64,000 nt of DNA from Candidatus Cloacimonadales bacterium (GTDB lineage Bacteria > Cloacimonadota > Cloacimonadia > Cloacimonadales > JAIOQZ01): assembly GCA_963662655.2 (NCBI GenBank), contig CAXXTU010000002.1:256001-320000 (forward strand). Direction: 5' to 3'. Below, piece by piece: positions 53,533-63,354 of the stretch; position 1 is the first letter of the stretch, and every line of letters starts with the position of its first letter. The notes beneath the pieces are model-generated. The model worked only from the letters and a program-made list of their open reading frames with translations, searched no databases and was not told where the DNA came from. Position numbers and translations under genes: made by a program.

Positions 53533-54717
53533 ATGAAGATTGAAGAAATTCGCATTAAGAATTACAGGCTTTTCAAGGACATCCATGTTAAAAATGTACC
53601 CTCATACATGGTCATAGTGGGCGCCAACGGCACAGGTAAAACGACTTTCTTCGACATCATCGGCTTCCTCAAGGATTGCCTGAACACAAACGTGAAAATC
53701 GCTTTGCAACAACGTGGCGGTTTTAACGAAGTCATCTCTCGTGAATGCGGGGAGGACACGATCTTGATCGAGATGAAGTTCAGGATGCCGATAATAGGTA
53801 TCGAACGCCTCGTGACGTACCATCTTGAAATCGGGATGAAGGAAAGGTTGCCTGTAGTGAGAAGAGAAATTTTGCGCTATAAACGTGGTCGGCATGGTTC
53901 TCCATTCCATTTCCTCGATTTCAAAGAAGGTGCGGGATATGCGATAACAAACGAAGAGGATTTCTACAAACCTGATGAAGAGCTTGATCGGGAATCTCAA
54001 GTTCTTGATTCGCCAACCATCCTCGCAATCAAGGGACTTGGGCAGTTCGAGAAATTCAAGGCCGCCAAGGAACTTCGGCAATTATTGGAAAAATGGTTTG
54101 TGTCGAATTTCCACATATCTGATGCAAGAGGTGAAAAGGATTTTGCGTATGCGGACCATTTGTCGGTTTCCGGGAATAATCTTCCATTATATGCATTTCG
54201 CATGTATGAGGAATATCGCGAAGTCTTCGACCGTGTATTGGAGGTATTGAAAAGACGTATTCCGGGGATACAGGAAGTTGTGGCGGAAAAGATGATAAAC
54301 GATCAGATAATCCTGAAATTCCGATTCGACAATTTCGCGGCGCCATTTATCGATCGATATGTTTCGGACGGGACGATCAAGATGTTTGCCTATTTATTGC
54401 TGCTGAACGATCCTTCGCCACTTCCTCTTCTATGCGTTGAAGAACCGGAGAATCAGCTCTATCCGAGATTGATGAACGAATTGTCGGAAGAGTTTGAGCA
54501 ATACAGCGAAGGCAGGCAGGTATTCGTATCGACTCATTCACCTGACTTCCTGAATGCGGTGCCATTGGAAAGCATCTTCTGGATAAAAAAGGAAGGCGGT
54601 TATTCGATCGTGCAGCGCGCGCTCGACGACGAAAATCTGAAAAGTCTTTTCGATGAGGGTGACAAACCGGGATACCTTTGGAAGCAAGGATTGTTTGAAG
54701 GAGCCGATCCCGTATGA
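53533..54717 (+). CDS. ABC-type ATPase (AAA_15/AAA_21)
   Basis: IKNYRLF, GANGTGKT, SDGT, EEPEN, STHS. Confidence 0.9.
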   Translation: MKIEEIRIKNYRLFKDIHVKNVPSYMVIVGANGTGKTTFFDIIGFLKDCLNTNVKIALQQRGGFNEVISRECGEDTILIEMKFRMPIIGIERLVTYHLEIGMKERLPVVRREILRYKRGRHGSPFHFLDFKEGAGYAITNEEDFYKPDEELDRESQVLDSPTILAIKGLGQFEKFKAAKELRQLLEKWFVSNFHISDARGEKDFAYADHLSVSGNNLPLYAFRMYEEYREVFDRVLEVLKRRIPGIQEVVAEKMINDQIILKFRFDNFAAPFIDRYVSDGTIKMFAYLLLLNDPSPLPLLCVEEPENQLYPRLMNELSEEFEQYSEGRQVFVSTHSPDFLNAVPLESIFWIKKEGGYSIVQRALDDENLKSLFDEGDKPGYLWKQGLFEGADPV

Positions 54718-55271
54718 TCGTTTTCATGGTTGAAGAAGAATCGATGGAGGTTACTCTTCGTGCATTGATTGCATCACACAGTCTCGACTACGAAGAGAAG
54801 AAAGACTGGATATGTATAACGCACCAGGGAAAAAGCGATCTGGAAGCGTCGATCCCCCGTAAACTGAAGGCTTGGAGGCAAAAGGATGACGTTTTTGTCA
54901 TTCTCAGGGATCAGGATCAGAAAGACTGCATATTGGTAAAACAAAGTCTTCAGGAATTATGCGGAAATAATCATGGTCACCGTGTCATTATCAGAGTGGT
55001 CTGCCGCGAGCTTGAGTCTTGGTTTCTTGGAGATTTAAATGCAGTAGCAAATGCTATAGGAAAACCAAAGCTAAAGGATTTACAGAATAAAAGACTATAT
55101 AGACAACCGGATACAATTACGGAAGCATCCAAGAGATTATCTGAGATTACAAGTATAAAAGGGAAGGTATCTCGCGCTCGAATGGTTGCCCATCAGATGA
55201 ATCTAATTGATAATCGGTCTCACAGTTTCCAGGTATTCATGAAGACTCTAGATGAATTGTTTCCCCAATGA
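54714..55271 (+). CDS. DUF4276-like (TOPRIM-fold) protein
   Basis: VEEES, GKSDL, LRDQD, ELESWFLGD, SHSF; ATGA overlap with the ATPase. Confidence 0.8.
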   Translation: MIVFMVEEESMEVTLRALIASHSLDYEEKKDWICITHQGKSDLEASIPRKLKAWRQKDDVFVILRDQDQKDCILVKQSLQELCGNNHGHRVIIRVVCRELESWFLGDLNAVANAIGKPKLKDLQNKRLYRQPDTITEASKRLSEITSIKGKVSRARMVAHQMNLIDNRSHSFQVFMKTLDELFPQ

Positions 55272-55369: not shown

Positions 55370-55447
55370 CGGGATGTAGCGCAGTCCGGCTAGCGTACTC
55401 GAATGGGGTTCGAGTGGTCGCAGGTTCAAATCCTGTCATCCCGACCA
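55370..55447 (+). tRNA. tRNA-Pro, anticodon GGG
   Basis: CGGGATG acceptor stem, CTCGA-ATGGGGT-TCGAG, GGTTCAAATCC, ends ACCA. Confidence 0.95.
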
Positions 55448-55497: not shown

Positions 55498-56127
55498 TGT
55501 AAAGTGACACCTACATTTTCCATGTCCCGTCCTAAAATAGTTGACCAGCTTTTTCGTGTTTGATTTCATTTCGATTGCTTCCTACGCTGCGTTCAATATG
55601 TAAAGTGACACCTTCATTTTCCACTTTGTGACAGCATGTTTTCCATCGTGCAACAAGTCGAAGTGACAGGAAATGCCTTTATCTCTCGCACCATCAATCA
55701 CATCAATGTAGTCACTCTTCCAAGTTGCAAGTGACGGCAGTCTTTCCTTCCAGTGACGGCAGTTTTTCCATCAAGGAAAACATGCTGGCACTTTTCGTGT
55801 TCAAGGGCTTCAGAAACTCCTGCTCATTTTTCAATGACTTACGAAAACTTCCAGTGATTGCAGTCTTTCCATTCCGCCCGATGGAAATTGTGACGTCACT
55901 TTTTCCACATCGCAAAAACGCCCAGTTATCTCACGCAATATCAATGACATGCTGAAACTTCCAGTGACGGCAATTTTTCCATCGTTTCGAGCCGTTTTCC
56001 AGTTGTTGCAAAGGATTAGAAACCCGAATGTCATTCATGCGGAGGCCAGCTATCTTCTCTTCAATCTGCAAGTTACAGCCAAACTGCAAGTGACGGCAGT
56101 TTTTCCTTAAGGAAAACATGCTGGCAC
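55498..56127. repeat. Array of GTGAC-N7/8-TTTCC motifs in both orientations
   Basis: Forward copies at 55504, 55605, 55628, 55731, 55753, 55854 (GTGAT), 55890, 55964, 56090; inverted copies at 55775-55791 and 56111-56127. Confidence 0.85.
55523..55598 (-). mobile_element. IS3-family right-end remnant (inverted)
   Basis: tgtcccgtcctaaaatagttgacc... matches the reverse complement of 63138-63214, including the terminal codons ILNAA*. Confidence 0.75.
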
Positions 56128-56206
56128 AAATGAAGCTATTGTCCTGAAAGCAAGGCAAATAGAAAGGCCTGAATCTTCCGACTCAGGCCTGCATTGCACG
56201 GTTATC

Positions 56207-56683
56207 CTACTTCTCCCCACTCCAGACATACAGCTTCCCGCCGTACGCGACGACTTCACCGATGACACCCTCTTCAGGCAGTTCGGTGACCTCCGCGATG
56301 ATGTCCGTGGTCTCGAGCTTGATATCGCCCTCAAGCGCGTGACCGTTGATCTTGGTGCGCGTTTCCACCTTGGCAGCGAGGGCCGTGGTGAGTCCGGATA
56401 TCTTGCTCTGCGCCAGCGTCGGGATGCGGTCGGTGGCGAGGGCGCCGGTCGCGATCTTGGCGGCGTCGAGGTCTGGTACGCGATCCACGACGAAGACGCC
56501 GGTGGTGATCTTGGAAGCGTCGAGGTCGGGTATCTGGCTCGCTTCGAGCACGCCTGTGATGTTCCCCGGCTCGATCTGCGGGATTTGCTCGGTGATCAGC
56601 TTTCCCGACTTGTCGAGCTGCGCGATACCGTTGGCGACGCCGAGTTGCCCGGAGTCGAGGATTTCCTGCCATGTGCCTGCCAT
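56207..56683 (-). CDS. Phage tail-fibre-like repeat protein (158 aa)
   Basis: AGGAGG RBS, GVANGIAQLD, 18-aa IPDLDASKITTG repeats, KINGHALEGDI; hairpin 56165-56190 downstream. Confidence 0.7.
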   Translation of the reverse strand: MAGTWQEILDSGQLGVANGIAQLDKSGKLITEQIPQIEPGNITGVLEASQIPDLDASKITTGVFVVDRVPDLDAAKIATGALATDRIPTLAQSKISGLTTALAAKVETRTKINGHALEGDIKLETTDIIAEVTELPEEGVIGEVVAYGGKLYVWSGEK

Positions 56684-56849
56684 CAGGCCTCCTTTGCTTC
56701 ACGTTCGAGCCGACTGAGCAGCAACACGGGCAGGCGAACTCGCCGTTTCGGATTTGTTGAGCATATCCTTCAGTGTATTCAAACCTTCGGTTTTCACCAA
56801 AGCGAAAGCCCATGATGCGGTCCCAATCGATCAAATCAATCTGTTTCAT

Positions 56850-59800
56850 GGGGTAACATCGAGATAGAGCTTGATGGAATTTTTGAAGGGGATGACGACG
56901 GCTGGGACTACCTTGGCGATATTCGCCTAGGCTACATAGAAGGTGATTACTGGTGTGGGTTTGGTAACCCCGAAGATAGTTGGAACGATATCCCAAGTAC
57001 ATCAATGTTGAGCAGCTATAACCGCTCGAATTACTTCTCATGGTTATTCGAAGAGACATCTCAAATCAACAATGCCAACGCTGTGAACGATATTCACAAT
57101 ATCGTTGAGGATGATCCAGCGGCTCCATGGTCAGCAGTTTTTACTATGTATGTTAGTGGAGACACGAGCTATCCTTATGACCAAACCAGTTATGAGCCAT
57201 ATCTCAACATGTGGGATGTTAGCCTCACGTTACACTATGAGGCGAGAGCCGTAATTTCAGGTCACGTCCTTGACATAGGTGGAAATCCGGTTCCTAACGC
57301 TCTGATTACTGTTCGGAATTCAGATAACTCTGTCTACACAACGATCACACCAAACTCGAGTAATGGTTCATATTCATTTGATGTCGATCCTGGTTGGACT
57401 GGTTCTGTTGTGCCCAGCGTTAGTACCGGCGATAGCTACACATTCGCTCCAACTGTAAGAAATTATACAGATATCGATCAGCACTACACAGCTCAGAATT
57501 TCACGGGGCATCTGAGCACTCCTCGAATTTCTGGCTATGTCCGTGATGTCGAAGCTGATCCCATCTCGAATGCGAGGATTTCTTTGAACAATACCAATGG
57601 CACTCTCCTTACGACTGTAATACCGAATAGCAGCACCGGCTATTACTCTGTCGAAGTGAATGCTGGTTGGTCTGGCACGGTTGTTCCGTGGGTAAATTCA
57701 ACCCAGAACTACGAGTTCGAACCGGCAGAAATCGACATCGATGCGATCGCTTTTCATACGCCAAACCAGAATTTCATCGGAGAGGCAGTGTTCACACTCT
57801 CAGGGGATATTGCTGTAGCAAGCGCTCAAACGTGGTCCAATCTATATAGCACAACATTGCGCTTCACTATATCTGGCGAAACACAGCCCAGTACATCGTT
57901 GACTCTAGCTCCCGGGGTGAATCATTTTTCCCAGGTGCTACCACCGGGTACATACACTGTTGAAGTTATCAGAAGCTGGTGTTTTAGCAGATCTTATAGC
58001 GGTATTACTGTCGCCGGGAATACAGATATCGGTACATTGACGATAACCGCGATGAATCCTTCGCTTATGCCTGTAACAAGTACTTCACAACAAAATACAT
58101 TCAATAGTGTGCAGGATGCGCTCGATATGCTCTTGTTCATGCAATACGATCCGAACCTGGCAAACATCGAAAAATACTTCATCGCAGTCGGACCTGGTAC
58201 TTACGACCCTATCTATATCTTCGATTTCGACGGCAAAGATATCACGGTTCATGGAACGAACAATAATACCGTCATCATCGAAGGCGAGAATTCATATCCT
58301 GGCATCAACATGAAGCGCAATATCGATTGTTCGATCAAAATAGAAGGTTTGAAGGTACAGAATTCGGAAGTCAGTGGTGTTGTTATCGACCGTCTGGAGT
58401 TGGCAACGGAAAATCCCTCCGATAACTGCGAGTACAGGCTGTACAACATGAAAATCGTAAATAGCGCGGTATATGGCTTCTCCCCATATGATGAGGAAGA
58501 AGATATGTCCGGGGCAGGTGTTTACTCGAACTACCCCGTAACCATCTCCGATTGCGAAATAACAAATAATCATGGCATTTGTGAGTACGGCAGCTATACC
58601 TATGGTTGGGGCCTTGGAGGAGGTATCTATGTCTGCAGTGAAGTCAATGGTAATACTGTCATAGAGGACTGCGTCATCTCGGGAAACTCGGCAAGGGAAG
58701 CAGGAGCGATTTACTTCGAGGGAGACGGCTCTCTATTGATTGACAACAACGAGATTTCGGAGAATGCGCTTGTGTTCCCAAGGACAGCCGGGGAAGGAGC
58801 AGGTCACTCGATGGGTGTTCATGTTGTCGTGTGTGATGAACTCACTGTCAGTAATAACGTGATCACCGACCATGAACGATATTTTGCCAATGGTACATGG
58901 TATCGGGGATATACTATGACAGTAGTGAATTGCGATGATTATCTGGTTATTAATAACACGATCGCCGATAACGAAAATCTTGATGGCGTAAAAATCAGTT
59001 ATGCATAAAATGGTGAAATTCTTAACAATATCTTCTTGAACAACAGAAGGCCCATCTACAGCACGACAAGTCTTATCGATGTTGGCTATTGCTGCTGGTA
59101 TGGCAATACTGGATCGAACTACTTCGGAGGTGGATATACGCCGGATGCCACCAATATAGCTGTAAATCCTTGCCTTGACACGAACTACATCCCCTTGTGG
59201 AACTCCACCACCCGCTCCCCAGTCATCGACAAAGGCGATCCCTCGATTACAGATCATGACAATACGACGAGTGACATCGGTGCAAAATGCGCTGTTACCC
59301 ACAAGCAAGAGGATTACACCTTCACACAGTCATCCGGTGGTTCACAGGAAATACACTGGGTGTGTTTCCCTGTGATTGACGACGTCTACACAGCCGATAA
59401 CGAGCCGGAAGTATTCTTTGTCCCTCTTGAAAACAACATGGACGGCATCATTGACAATGGTCATGAGGCTGTGTATAATAATGGTTGGCTCTACCCTAAC
59501 TTCGGGACAGTTGACCCAACCAGAGGCTACAAGGTCACCATGAACAGCACCACCTCCATGGATAAATCAGGTTTCCTTGCTGATCCGGACACGAAGATTT
59601 CTCTGGCCAATAATTCAACAACCTGGGTAGGTTACTTCCTCGAGGAAAGCCAGCAACCGACAAGCGCCCTTGCAGATGTATTGGATAATCTGCAGCAAAT
59701 CCAGCACCATGATTGGACGTTAACATACGATCCGCTGTGGGGATGGTTGGGTTTAAGTAGTTACACCCTAAACTATGGTGATATGGTGATTTTGACCACC

Positions 59801-60526
59801 AGAACAACGGGAGGCGCTTGCGAGTTCGCCTGGTCAGATAACCTGATCCCTGAAGACCCGAAGATGAAGAAAGCAACCAGTTACTTCGCTTGCAACGAAG
59901 AACCTGACTATGTCCCAGTCTATCTGAATCTCAGCGCTTACAACGAAAACATGCCGCAAGAAGTCGGCATGTATGCAGACGGGACATTGATAGGCGCAAC
60001 AGTGACTGATTCCGTAGAAACGCAGATCAACGCCTACGTGGATGAAATTGAAGATATCGAAAACGCGGAAATCAGCTTCGAGCTCTATTACGGACAGCGC
60101 AGTCCTGTCGAACAATGCGGGTTGTATACGGTAAGCTCGGAGCTGACGGATGGTTTCGTTACCACCTCGAAAATGTTCGCAACAAAATCACGTTACTACA
60201 TGGTGACATTGGGAGAAGGTGGAAATGGCGAACCTGTACCTGATCTTCCCAAGACTGTCAGCGTGAGAAACTACCCGAACCCCTTCAACCCCGAAACTAC
60301 GATCAGTTACGCGCTTCCACAGGACGGACAAGCCGTGATCAAAGTGTACAACCTGCGCGGTCAGTTGGTAAAGACACTGGTAAACGACAGGATGGAAGCC
60401 GGTTACCATGACGTTGTATGGGCAGGTAGAGATGAAAACAACAAGTCTGTCGCCTCCGGTATCTATTTCCTTCGTATGCAGGCAGGCGGCAAGACGCTTA
60501 CGCATAAGCTCATGCTGCTGAAATAA
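56850..60526 (+). pseudogene. Large FlgD-Ig/T9SS-tailed surface protein, 5'-truncated, in-frame TAA at 59006-59008
   Basis: Frame open upstream of 57005 with no start or signal peptide; ORFs 57005-59008 and 59036-60526 share a frame; two ~90-aa repeats, beta-helix-like GGGIY region, YPNPFNPET tail; 5' boundary approximate. Confidence 0.8.
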
Positions 60527-60541
60527 CTTGACGCAACAACA

Positions 60542-60570
60542 TGAGGGAGCAAGATTTTCTTGCTCCCTCA
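60542..60570. other. 13-bp stem-loop between the two cargo genes, no U tract
   Basis: tgagggagcaaga-ttt-tcttgctccctca. Confidence 0.6.
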
Positions 60571-60586
60571 ATCATTAGGAGGCTTC

Positions 60587-62969
60587 ATGCGTTTTGCCAT
60601 GCTTGTCGTGCTACTCATTCCTTGTTGTTGTCTTCTATCGGAAACCCTCACCGTTGCCCTCGACGGCAGCCAGGACTACACAAGCGTACAAGCTGCTGTT
60701 AATGCCGCAAACAACGGCGATGTGGTTCTTGTGCACCCAGGAACTTACTACGAGAATATCGTCATCGATGACAAGTTCATCACGCTCGCAAGCTTGAACT
60801 ACACGACTGGCGAGGAGCAATACATACACTCCACTATCCTCGATGGAAACTTCAGTGGCTCCGTTGTTCGTATGGTACTGGAAACTTCGCCCCAGCCAGC
60901 GGACGCCATCATTCAAGGTTTCACGATCATTCATGGTACAGGTTACATAAGAAACTGGTATTGGCCCGAATACGGGGGGGGGGGTTTATGTTGTTTGTGG
61001 AAATTATGATTACTGGATTGATGTAAAAATCTCAAATTGCCAGGTAAAATATAATGAAGCCGAATTTGGGGCGGGGATAAGATTCCATTACTGGGGTAAT
61101 CTCTACATGAGAAACGTTAGTATTCATGACAATACTGCATGGAGTTCGGCTGCTGGAATAAGTATAAACTACTCGTCACTGATAACATACCCGGAGTCCC
61201 CGTGCAATTTCTACGATAATATCGCTGCAACGGGACATGATATTACTATCGCTAATGCACTGAATGATTATGAAATCTACGCTGATACGCTAACGACAGA
61301 AACCCCCTATCCTGCCTATGCCGGTATCCAGTTTGATGACTATGTTACACCCGAGCCGCAATTGATTCTCCATCACAATCACTGGACATTCGAGGAGACG
61401 GATGCCGACCTGTACGTTTCTCCAAACGGTGATGACGGAAACAGCGGATTGAGCCCGGCCGATCCATTGCGTACGATTCGCAGAGCAAGCTACATGATTG
61501 CTTCCAATCCAGTATCTCCTCGGAGTATTTATCTCGAACCGGGTGTATATACAGACCTAAATGGAAATCAGGAATACGGTGTTGGTCTAAAATCACACGT
61601 GTCTCTCATTGGGGCTGGTTCCGATATGACATTTCTGGAGACGTATAATGCGCAGAAATTATTGTATTGTGGCTATGCCGATAGCATCAGGATTTCGGGC
61701 ATGACGCTCGCAAATTATTATCCTGTCTATCAGGATGAGATATGGTCTCCTCATACGTTATACTTACTTCATTGCACAGGCGCACTCGTCGAGGACATTC
61801 ATGTCTCGGGGCTCGAAACAGGCAGACTTCCATCTGTTACGCTGATTGGATCAAATCAGTTAACGTTGCGCAATGCTGTAGTAGAGAACAACGAAGGGTA
61901 TCTGGATGCAGGGCTTCTTGTGAATGGCCAAGACGTCATAATTGAAGATTGTATTGTTCGAAACAATCACGCCATTGGCGATGAGCCAGAATACAATTCG
62001 AACTCAGGCTTCAATATAAACGTCTGCGGTGATTCTCATATTAACGGCTTGGTCGTAGTGAACAACATAAATGACTTTGGGGCAGACTGGCACAGAGTGG
62101 GCGTTATCCTAAACGGAAGGGCAGAATCTGGCGCACACCTTGTGGTCTCAAATAGTCTTTTTGCCGATAATGTTTCACCCAATGACCACACTTTCTTCGT
62201 CGAGCCAAATTCTGGAAGCATTGCATTCGTGAATTGCACGTTCGCAGGCAATCAATCCGAGTATAGCACTATTCTGGTTCATCGAGTGAGTGATCAGTTT
62301 GATGTCGACCCAACACGATTTGTAAACTGTGTGTTTTACGATGAAACTGCGTACGAGTTTGAGAATGACAGCTCTGCGCCATGTGCGATAGAAGTGGGCT
62401 ACTCTCTTGTGAATAACGGAATTGACGGAATTTATTCCCCGAACAACGAGGTCATCTGGGGTGATGGTAATCTCGATCTCAATCCACTACTGACCAATGC
62501 CGAGCAATTTTACTACCCGCAGGAGGACTCCCCGCTCATCAACGCCGGTACGCCCGACACGACCGGACTGGGACTTCCGTCGCTCGACCTCTGCAAACGC
62601 GCACGGGTGTGGGACGGCTGTGTCGATATCGGCTGCCACGAATATGGCTCCGTGGGCGTCTCACCAGAGCCGGAACCTGAGGATGTCCCGGCAACAGCAC
62701 TTGCTCTTGCCAACTACCCGAATCCGTTCAATCCGTGGACACGCATCACATATAGCCTGCCAGAAGCAGCTCACGTGAAACTTAACGTGTACAATATTCG
62801 AGGGCAACGCGTAACGATACTGGTGGACGAACACCTCGCTGCCGGCAGGCACACCGCTGTCTGGGATGGCCGCAATGAGCGGATGAAGATCGTGGCGGGT
62901 GGGGTGTACTTGCTGCGCCTGCAAGCAGGGGATAGGACTGAGGTGCAGAAGGTGCTGATGGTGAAGTAG
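60587..62969 (+). pseudogene. FlgD-Ig/T9SS-tailed beta-helix surface protein frameshifted at a G11 tract
   Basis: AGGAGG RBS, signal peptide; removing one G at 60974-60984 joins ORFs 60560-61009 and 61107-62969 via YGGGVY. Confidence 0.85.
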
Positions 62970-63043
62970 GGGTTTTGGGATGTATGCTGTCTTCGGATAA
63001 ACAGATTTTCCTTTCAGAAGTGAAGAAAACGAATCGAAAGGAC

Positions 63044-63214
63044 TTTGACGACGCACAGAAACATGTGGAGAAAGCAGTTTAGATATACAACGAAGAGCGG
63101 CTCAACATCATGCAGGATTATCGCACGCCAAACGAGATTTTGAATGCGACATAGGAATCTACCGAAACGAAATTAAACAAAAAAAAAGCAGGTCAACTAT
63201 TTTAGGACGAGACA
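63044..63214 (+). mobile_element. IS3-family transposase 3' remnant with right inverted repeat
   Basis: FDDAQKHVEKAV*IYNEERLNIMQDYRTPNEILNAT*, resembling YN..R.H..L.Y.TP; ends gtcaactattttaggacgagaca. Confidence 0.7.
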
Positions 63215-63216
63215 GC

Positions 63217-63354
63217 TGTAAAGTGACATCTACATTTTCACACTTTGTGACAGCATGTTTTCCTTCATTCCAGTTCCTGAAGTGACAGGAAATACTTTTA
63301 TCTTTCGCCCTCTCAATCGCATTCATGTAGTCACTCTCCCAAACATCCAGTGAC
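63217..63354 (+). repeat. Imperfect direct repeat of 55599-55735
   Basis: Shared tgtaaagtgaca, cactttgtgacagcatgttttcc, gaagtgacaggaaat, atgtagtcactct blocks in the same order and spacing. Confidence 0.88.

Follow-up and report, generated by a model that had tools for sequence, protein, structure and literature searches.

The array of binding-type motifs behind a tRNA-Pro gene of a Candidatus Cloacimonadales genome is almost certainly the right end of a Mu-like transposable phage of Cloacimonadota, its motifs being putative MuA-type transposase binding sites, as judged by identity with one arm of a complete prophage. The phage belongs to a clade, here termed alpha, whose right ends recur just 3' of tRNA genes, and we consider it likely, from the distribution of these ends among related genomes, that the clade actively homes to these positions by a route that does not involve TniQ. 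Mu serves as the standard example of a near-random transposon, and where insertion is aimed, selectors of the Tn7 type (TniQ/TnsD, Cas) are usually held responsible; the landing of alpha phages behind tRNAs in one orientation and without TniQ suggests a further way in which DDE transposition could be targeted.

The motif array and the complete prophage

The window (the whole 64-kb stretch of DNA analysed) contains 11 matches to GTGAC-N7/8-TTTCC, against 0.36 +/- 0.58 expected from 100 shuffles. The initial annotation had counted eleven copies and placed them all in the array; the count stands, and nine of them lie within 55504-56106, with one more at 63247 and a stray match at 54963, inside a DUF4276 open reading frame, that is probably due to chance. 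The 11-mer TGTAAAGTGAC is present six times in the 3.8-Mb genome, three times at C2:2,758,868-944 and three times in the window, where a search recovers it at the positions first reported (55498, 55599, and 63217), the first copy beginning 50 bp 3' of the tRNA-Pro(GGG) gene that ARAGORN ends at 55447. Also borne out are the tandem site pairs 22-23 bp apart (55605/55628, 23 bp, and 55731/55753, 22 bp) and the two head-to-head pairs, one being 55883(-)/55890(+) and the other consisting of degenerate GTGCC sites that end at 55791 and 56127. Just upstream of the tRNA, at 53533-55271, Pfam identifies an AAA_21 ATPase and DUF4276 gene pair, possibly a defence or toxin-antitoxin pair.

Positions 55599-56726 of the window are 91-95% identical to the right arm of a 34,853-bp prophage that lies 2.4 Mb away in the same genome, with its right end (the C2:2,758,868-944 cluster) 59 bp after tRNA-Val(CAC), and this identity upholds the earlier reading of the array as transposase sites of a DDE-type element. 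The prophage encodes a 696-residue transposase (phrog_310, E 2e-92; Mu-transpos_C, PF09299) and a 240-residue AAA+ transposition ATPase resembling MuB (phrog_296, E 2e-25; AAA_22/TniB; Walker motifs at 38 and 113), and its genes further include a CI-like repressor, a ner gene recognized by a weak HTH match only, a 169-residue winged-helix protein, and DUF3164. Within the same 34,853 bp are terminases, Mu F, portal, protease/capsid, and endolysin genes, the tail genes being mostly unannotated. The two termini (left TGTAAGTTGACACC, right TGTAAAGTGACACC) are related and carry arrayed predicted transposase sites. We also note a cargo slot (L002:3706-8727) whose opposite strand encodes a helicase-like protein together with a DNA methyltransferase, a pair that may form a type III restriction system, and two tandem methyltransferases among the late genes.

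In their repressor-ner-A-B gene order, Mu-transpos_C DDE transposase, and AAA+ ATPase, and in their size of about 35 kb, arrayed end sites, TG or TA termini, and 5-bp duplication, these elements resemble Mu, B3, D3112, BalMu-1, and the Leptospira TG-CA/TA-TA prophages, as described in the accessible portion of PMC8705779. They differ from those phages in that the alpha transposase is 22-33% identical to the 20 best of the phage records listed, in the tandem winged-helix gene after MuB, and in the position of the right end 3' of tRNA genes in one orientation rather than near-randomly. The sole sequence match of the transposase in the PDB is ShTnsB (E 4e-8).

The window itself holds a deleted phage remnant with nested end stubs (Table 1), which no longer has the virion genes, a left end, or a target duplication. 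The initial annotation saw no cognate protein in the window, which holds for a transposase and fails for the last phage gene (56207-56683) and the endolysin stub, the latter marking the deletion of the head and tail module. The cargo-slot DNA (57005-62969) is 68-75% identical to the cargo slot of another prophage in the genome and 94% identical to DNA near a third; a stop near 59006 interrupts one of its genes, and a G-run frameshift near 60980, which may be a sequencing error, interrupts another. The 1333-bp insertion sequence whose fragment interrupts the first stub has orfA/orfB-type frames with a DDE-like motif and is called IS3-like from a reading of those frames, and the diverged IS3-like end at 63040-63214 probably forms the boundary of a left-arm deletion. 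A 32-bp inverted repeat (55523/63214) considered as an element boundary was rejected, its arms being two IS3-like ends. The tRNA-Val copy of the right end is shorter, without 211 bp between two near-identical sites, and the window has the longer form; a contig from another study joins tRNA-Pro to the same right end, also in the long form and from exactly 55599 to 56374. The nested right ends, a stub at 55498, a full end at 55599, and a decayed one at 63217, agree with the earlier suggestion of repeated insertion at this site, and we infer that the phage type landed here two or more times, probably three, before deletions took place.

Table 1. Features of the phage remnant in the window and of related prophages in the source genome (positions prefixed C1 or C2 lie outside the window numbering)
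Feature	Position	Strand	Basis
tRNA-Pro(GGG), landing site	55370..55447	+	ARAGORN
25-bp stub of an earlier phage right end (first predicted transposase site)	55498..55522	+	96% to 55599-55623
77-bp terminal fragment of 1333-bp IS3-like element, interrupting the stub	55523..55599	+	identical to 8 full genomic copies
Full right end of Mu-like phage, TG terminus and arrayed GTGAC-N7/8-TTTCC sites	55599..56127	+	93-95% to tRNA-Val prophage end
Right-end sites, forward	55605, 55628, 55731, 55753, 55854, 55890, 55964, 56090	+	motif scan
Right-end sites, reverse	55791, 55899, 56127	-	motif scan
Last phage gene, 158 aa, tail-fibre-like repeats	56207..56683	-	98% to tRNA-Val prophage last gene; weak PHROG tail matches
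Endolysin gene, 5' stub	56712..56852	-	tblastn 47%; query phrog_894 endolysin
Cargo-slot genes, secreted FlgD/T9SS-tail proteins, two broken	57005..62969	+	Pfam
Diverged (80%) IS3-like end, inverted	63040..63214	-	sequence match
Older, decayed right end of the same phage type	63217..63360	+	83% to 55599-55723
Beta-type Mu-like prophages/remnants, TA termini	C1:11,900-20,970 with C2:1-10,342; C2:477,000-510,900; C2:3,289,757-3,322,450; C2:1,616,700-1,619,430		
Gamma-type Mu-like prophage, two distant pieces	C2:344,725-365,600 and C2:1,307,330-1,316,600		

Right ends, tRNA genes, and target duplications

Loci were gathered by similarity to a phage end or to the transposase, blind to tRNAs, and a script assigned the ends to types from their alignment scores (threshold 20) and recorded how far each lay from the 3' end of a facing tRNA or tmRNA gene, both in the fetched loci and in the source genome. 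The tally left out L001-L015 and duplicates (L084-L094 among them), and the 37 alpha right-end rows became 36 loci after two ends at one tRNA were merged. Exact-pattern scans gave 12, 1, and 2 loci; a pattern match inside a gene of an unrelated genome (L095) was taken as chance.

The alpha right end lies within 300 bp 3' of a facing tRNA or tmRNA gene at 17 of the 36 loci, and within 100 bp at 14 of them. Positions within 300 bp 3' of such a gene make up 0.15% of the genome, or 0.74% when only intergenic DNA is considered, and the near-random target choice expected of a Mu-like phage is thus not what is found (17/36 against 0.74%), although related genomes share sites (Pro GGG in five genomes, Val CAC in three) that may be partly inherited, so that a binomial P overstates the excess. 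The initial proposal that tRNA 3' ends are targeted, made from a single locus, gains from these counts across relatives. No alpha left end faces a tRNA or tmRNA 3' end within 300 bp (0/20), and the orientation of the tRNA-facing alpha ends is fixed, with 17 right and 0 left. Ends of other types, for most of which 1.5 kb of flank was at hand, sufficient for a 300-bp test, face a tRNA in one case of 34, and that end scored at the threshold in a genome whose transposase is of the alpha clade. At least ten different tRNA or tmRNA genes serve as targets; the tally includes Pro GGG/CGG/TGG, Val, Asn, Arg CCT, and tmRNA, to which the ends that the rule missed or misclassed add Asp, Val GAC, and Lys. 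The distance from tRNA to right end is mostly 35-90 bp and ranges overall from 7 to over 200 bp.

The other 19 loci lack an intact tRNA in that 300-bp range, the nearest being at 712 and 767 bp for two of them. Displaced 3' fragments of tRNA or tmRNA genes lie 164-206 bp from two of these 19 ends and from one end outside the tally, a pattern that was defined after those loci had been viewed and that occurs at 0/36 control ends, with a background of 0.5%. About ten of the non-tRNA right ends adjoin other phage ends or IS ends, and some (G001, G006 C21/C22/C4) are without explanation. The G001 right end (L160:11672), away from any tRNA, is about 180 bp from a CRISPR array. Two alpha left ends from two genomes (L045:7578 and L149:6457) lie 207-518 bp 5' of the same tRNA operon.

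Target duplications of 5 bp, which the initial annotation had suggested looking for, are present in five of the seven full alpha prophages for which both ends were found, the flanks having been compared by eye. Among the mini-elements a 5-bp duplication is seen at only one of six loci, the one 46 bp after a tRNA-Pro, and neither the window locus nor the tRNA-Val locus yields one. Insertions that are clean, with the 5-bp duplication intact and older ends absent, are found 46 and 76 bp after tRNAs. Nested end stubs occur at Pro, Val, Asp, Arg, and tmRNA sites, and left ends often adjoin remnants of right ends, at positions -2 to +67, and do so at tRNA-free sites and among beta prophages too.

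Other clades and a candidate target selector

The source genome carries three end types, and homing and non-homing sister clades coexist in the same genomes. The alpha transposases form one clade (quick IQ-TREE, SH-aLRT 100, 35 rows). Among the prophages of the beta (7) and f3 (4) clades whose right side could be placed, none has a tRNA there, several beta right ends being truncated by insertion sequences. The four beta prophages or remnants of the source genome are likewise away from tRNAs (0/4); one of them has a 5-bp duplication and adjoins an older right-end remnant. A -35-like box lies 35-63 bp outside some beta and f3 ends (12/36, counted with no control set). Beta right ends often have a TTGACA-like box at 41-53 bp that points away from the phage (L074, L077, L080, and C2:10,342 of the source genome), and possibly prefer DNA upstream of promoters.

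The gamma clade is also found behind tRNAs, its right ends lying 7, 7, 64, and 79 bp after tRNA-Arg CCG or CCT in all four genomes with a match among the eight searched; that of the source genome begins 7 bp after tRNA-Arg(CCG) and has nested stubs. The CCG and CCT genes have the most alike 3' 30-mers among 50 tRNA genes, which for gamma favours reading of the tRNA sequence. Of the alpha targets, the three Pro genes resemble one another most, and Val CAC matches Pro GGG at only 21 of 30 positions at the 3' end (median 19). A hybrid whose MuB is nearer to that of the alpha prophage (70%) and whose transposase is of the beta type does not lie at a tRNA (n=1). One genome examined as a prospective test (G153) gave neither tail homologs nor a tRNA, and for several distant clades no right end was found.

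The gene that follows MuB encodes a 169-residue protein with two winged-helix domains (model pLDDT 94) and no integrase core-binding domain, and is often fused to DUF3164. We put it forward, tentatively, as the best candidate for a target selector. It has 52 matches at E<=0.001 among the representatives, and no relatives in viral contigs; its Atlas neighbours are hypothetical Cloacimonadota proteins and generic HTH clusters, and its model finds no PDB fold match at E<=0.001, the other matches being unnamed or generic viral ones. The winged-helix gene is the third gene in the non-homing clades too, so a selector role can only be proposed; its sequence is clade-specific, its tree separates homing from non-homing clades no better than the transposase tree does, and no selector unique to the homing clades was found. 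Should the proposal be true, MuA/MuB transposition would have in this protein a target selector of a new class. Within alpha, the subclade of L057, L060, and L064 has an extra gene of 222-223 residues between transposase and ATPase, and its transposases have long low-complexity N-terminal repeats.

Models for insertion behind tRNAs

In Mu transposition the transposase binds arrayed sites and is supplied with target DNA by the ATPase, and 5 bp are duplicated upon strand transfer. For lysogeny, alpha phages would be steered to DNA just 3' of certain tRNA genes, with a selector protein that probably reads the 3' half of the tRNA and positions the MuB-like ATPase and the transposase, as TnsD does for Tn7. 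The selector would also orient the complex, leaving the right end proximal to the tRNA. Later landings at the same address would cut earlier ends, which would give rise to the nested stubs and to the right-end remnants beside left ends. In its broadest form the model holds that protein-guided, TniQ-free tRNA homing evolved twice (alpha at Pro/Val/Asn/Arg/tmRNA, gamma at Arg CCG/CCT), the clade-specific winged-helix protein being an exchangeable selector and sister clades with diverged selectors going elsewhere; taken as a whole, we regard this as possible and somewhat doubtful.

Copies behind tRNAs could also accumulate if insertion were near-random, as for Mu, and only those at harmless sites survived, the island DNA flanking tRNAs being safe and the insertions then inherited. 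The intergenic position of the beta and gamma ends in the source genome is consistent with this, as is the finding that several genomes have the same tRNA site in common. However, no orientation bias is expected from survival alone, in contrast to the 17 right and 0 left ends that face tRNAs, the beta prophages of the same genomes are not at tRNAs, and the distances and flanks at shared tRNAs vary between genomes, with at least ten tRNA or tmRNA genes in use, and we consider survival an improbable explanation. Attraction of the transposase to its own old ends, such that a chance hit near a tRNA seeds repeated insertions and the tRNA itself goes unread, would fit the recurrence of nested stubs and the right-end remnants adjoining left ends, also in beta and also away from tRNAs. 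It leaves the first hits unexplained, and in particular the clean insertions behind tRNAs that have intact duplications and no older end, and as a substitute for homing it seems quite improbable to us; such attraction may act alongside homing.

Homing could be real and yet respond to transcription or to DNA topology downstream of short, highly expressed genes (a terminator, RNA polymerase, or supercoiling), the cue being read by MuB or a host factor rather than by a sequence-specific phage protein. The many different tRNAs and the tmRNA used by alpha, the loose distances, the modest likeness of Val CAC to Pro GGG, and the lack of a selector unique to the homing clades all favour such a cue, although few of the approximately 50 tRNA genes recur and each clade has its own set (the Pro/Val family for alpha, Arg CCG/CCT for gamma), and the single hybrid with the alpha-nearer MuB is not at a tRNA. 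We hold this version to be possible, as one that shares in the likelihood given to homing itself. The proposal of the initial annotation that the array represents ends of an undescribed Tn7-like or V-K CAST transposon, or iterons of an integrative satellite, now appears very improbable. The end sequence does resemble that of ShCAST, TGTACAGTGAC, which the initial annotation had named and which is indeed present in donor primers of a V-K TnsB paper (bioRxiv 10.1101/2022.08.05.502904), and the best PDB match of the transposase is ShTnsB. But phage tail and lysis genes form one continuous stretch with the array, which also matches the end of a full prophage. Genome-wide profile searches gave no match to TniQ (PF06527) or TnsA (PF08722), the controls being silent too, no Cas, TniQ, or primase was recognized with Pfam and PHROG among the 31 prophage ORFs scanned, and with no TniQ or TnsA found we do not take the element to be a Tn7 or CAST. 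Similarly, no integrase, primase/Rep, or att repeats were found around the array among the 14 window ORFs scanned, which speaks against satellite iterons.

Active homing by alpha, our preferred reading, has its closest parallel in the tRNA-homing Tn7-like and CAST elements (CyCAST I-D, type I-B2, V-K ShCAST), which share insertion shortly downstream of a tRNA, a similar terminus, and a related transposase. The alpha phages differ from them in that no TniQ/TnsD, TnsA, or Cas was found, in having head and lysis genes, and in their looser spacing (7 to over 200 bp). CyCAST homing is TnsD-dependent and falls 30-33 nt after the tRNA, and Mu is listed without a selector, in the accessible text of PMC10293859. 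Mu- and B3-like phages are given near-random insertion, 5/6-bp duplications, and TA termini in PMC8705779, and PMC11846083 and PMC12486242 treat Mu-like insertion as random or gene-biased and not as tRNA-aimed, in each case in those portions of the articles that are accessible. Among the openly accessible papers that literature searches listed, no report of tRNA-homing transposable phages was seen, a scope that leaves room for prior publication. Homing Mu-like phages would account for layered islands with nested end stubs behind tRNAs without calling on an integrase. Elsewhere in the source genome, at C2:2,454,000-2,455,200, a repressor fragment is joined back-to-back to a fragment of the last phage gene, beside a beta-type left end and an insertion sequence, and represents another collapsed prophage.
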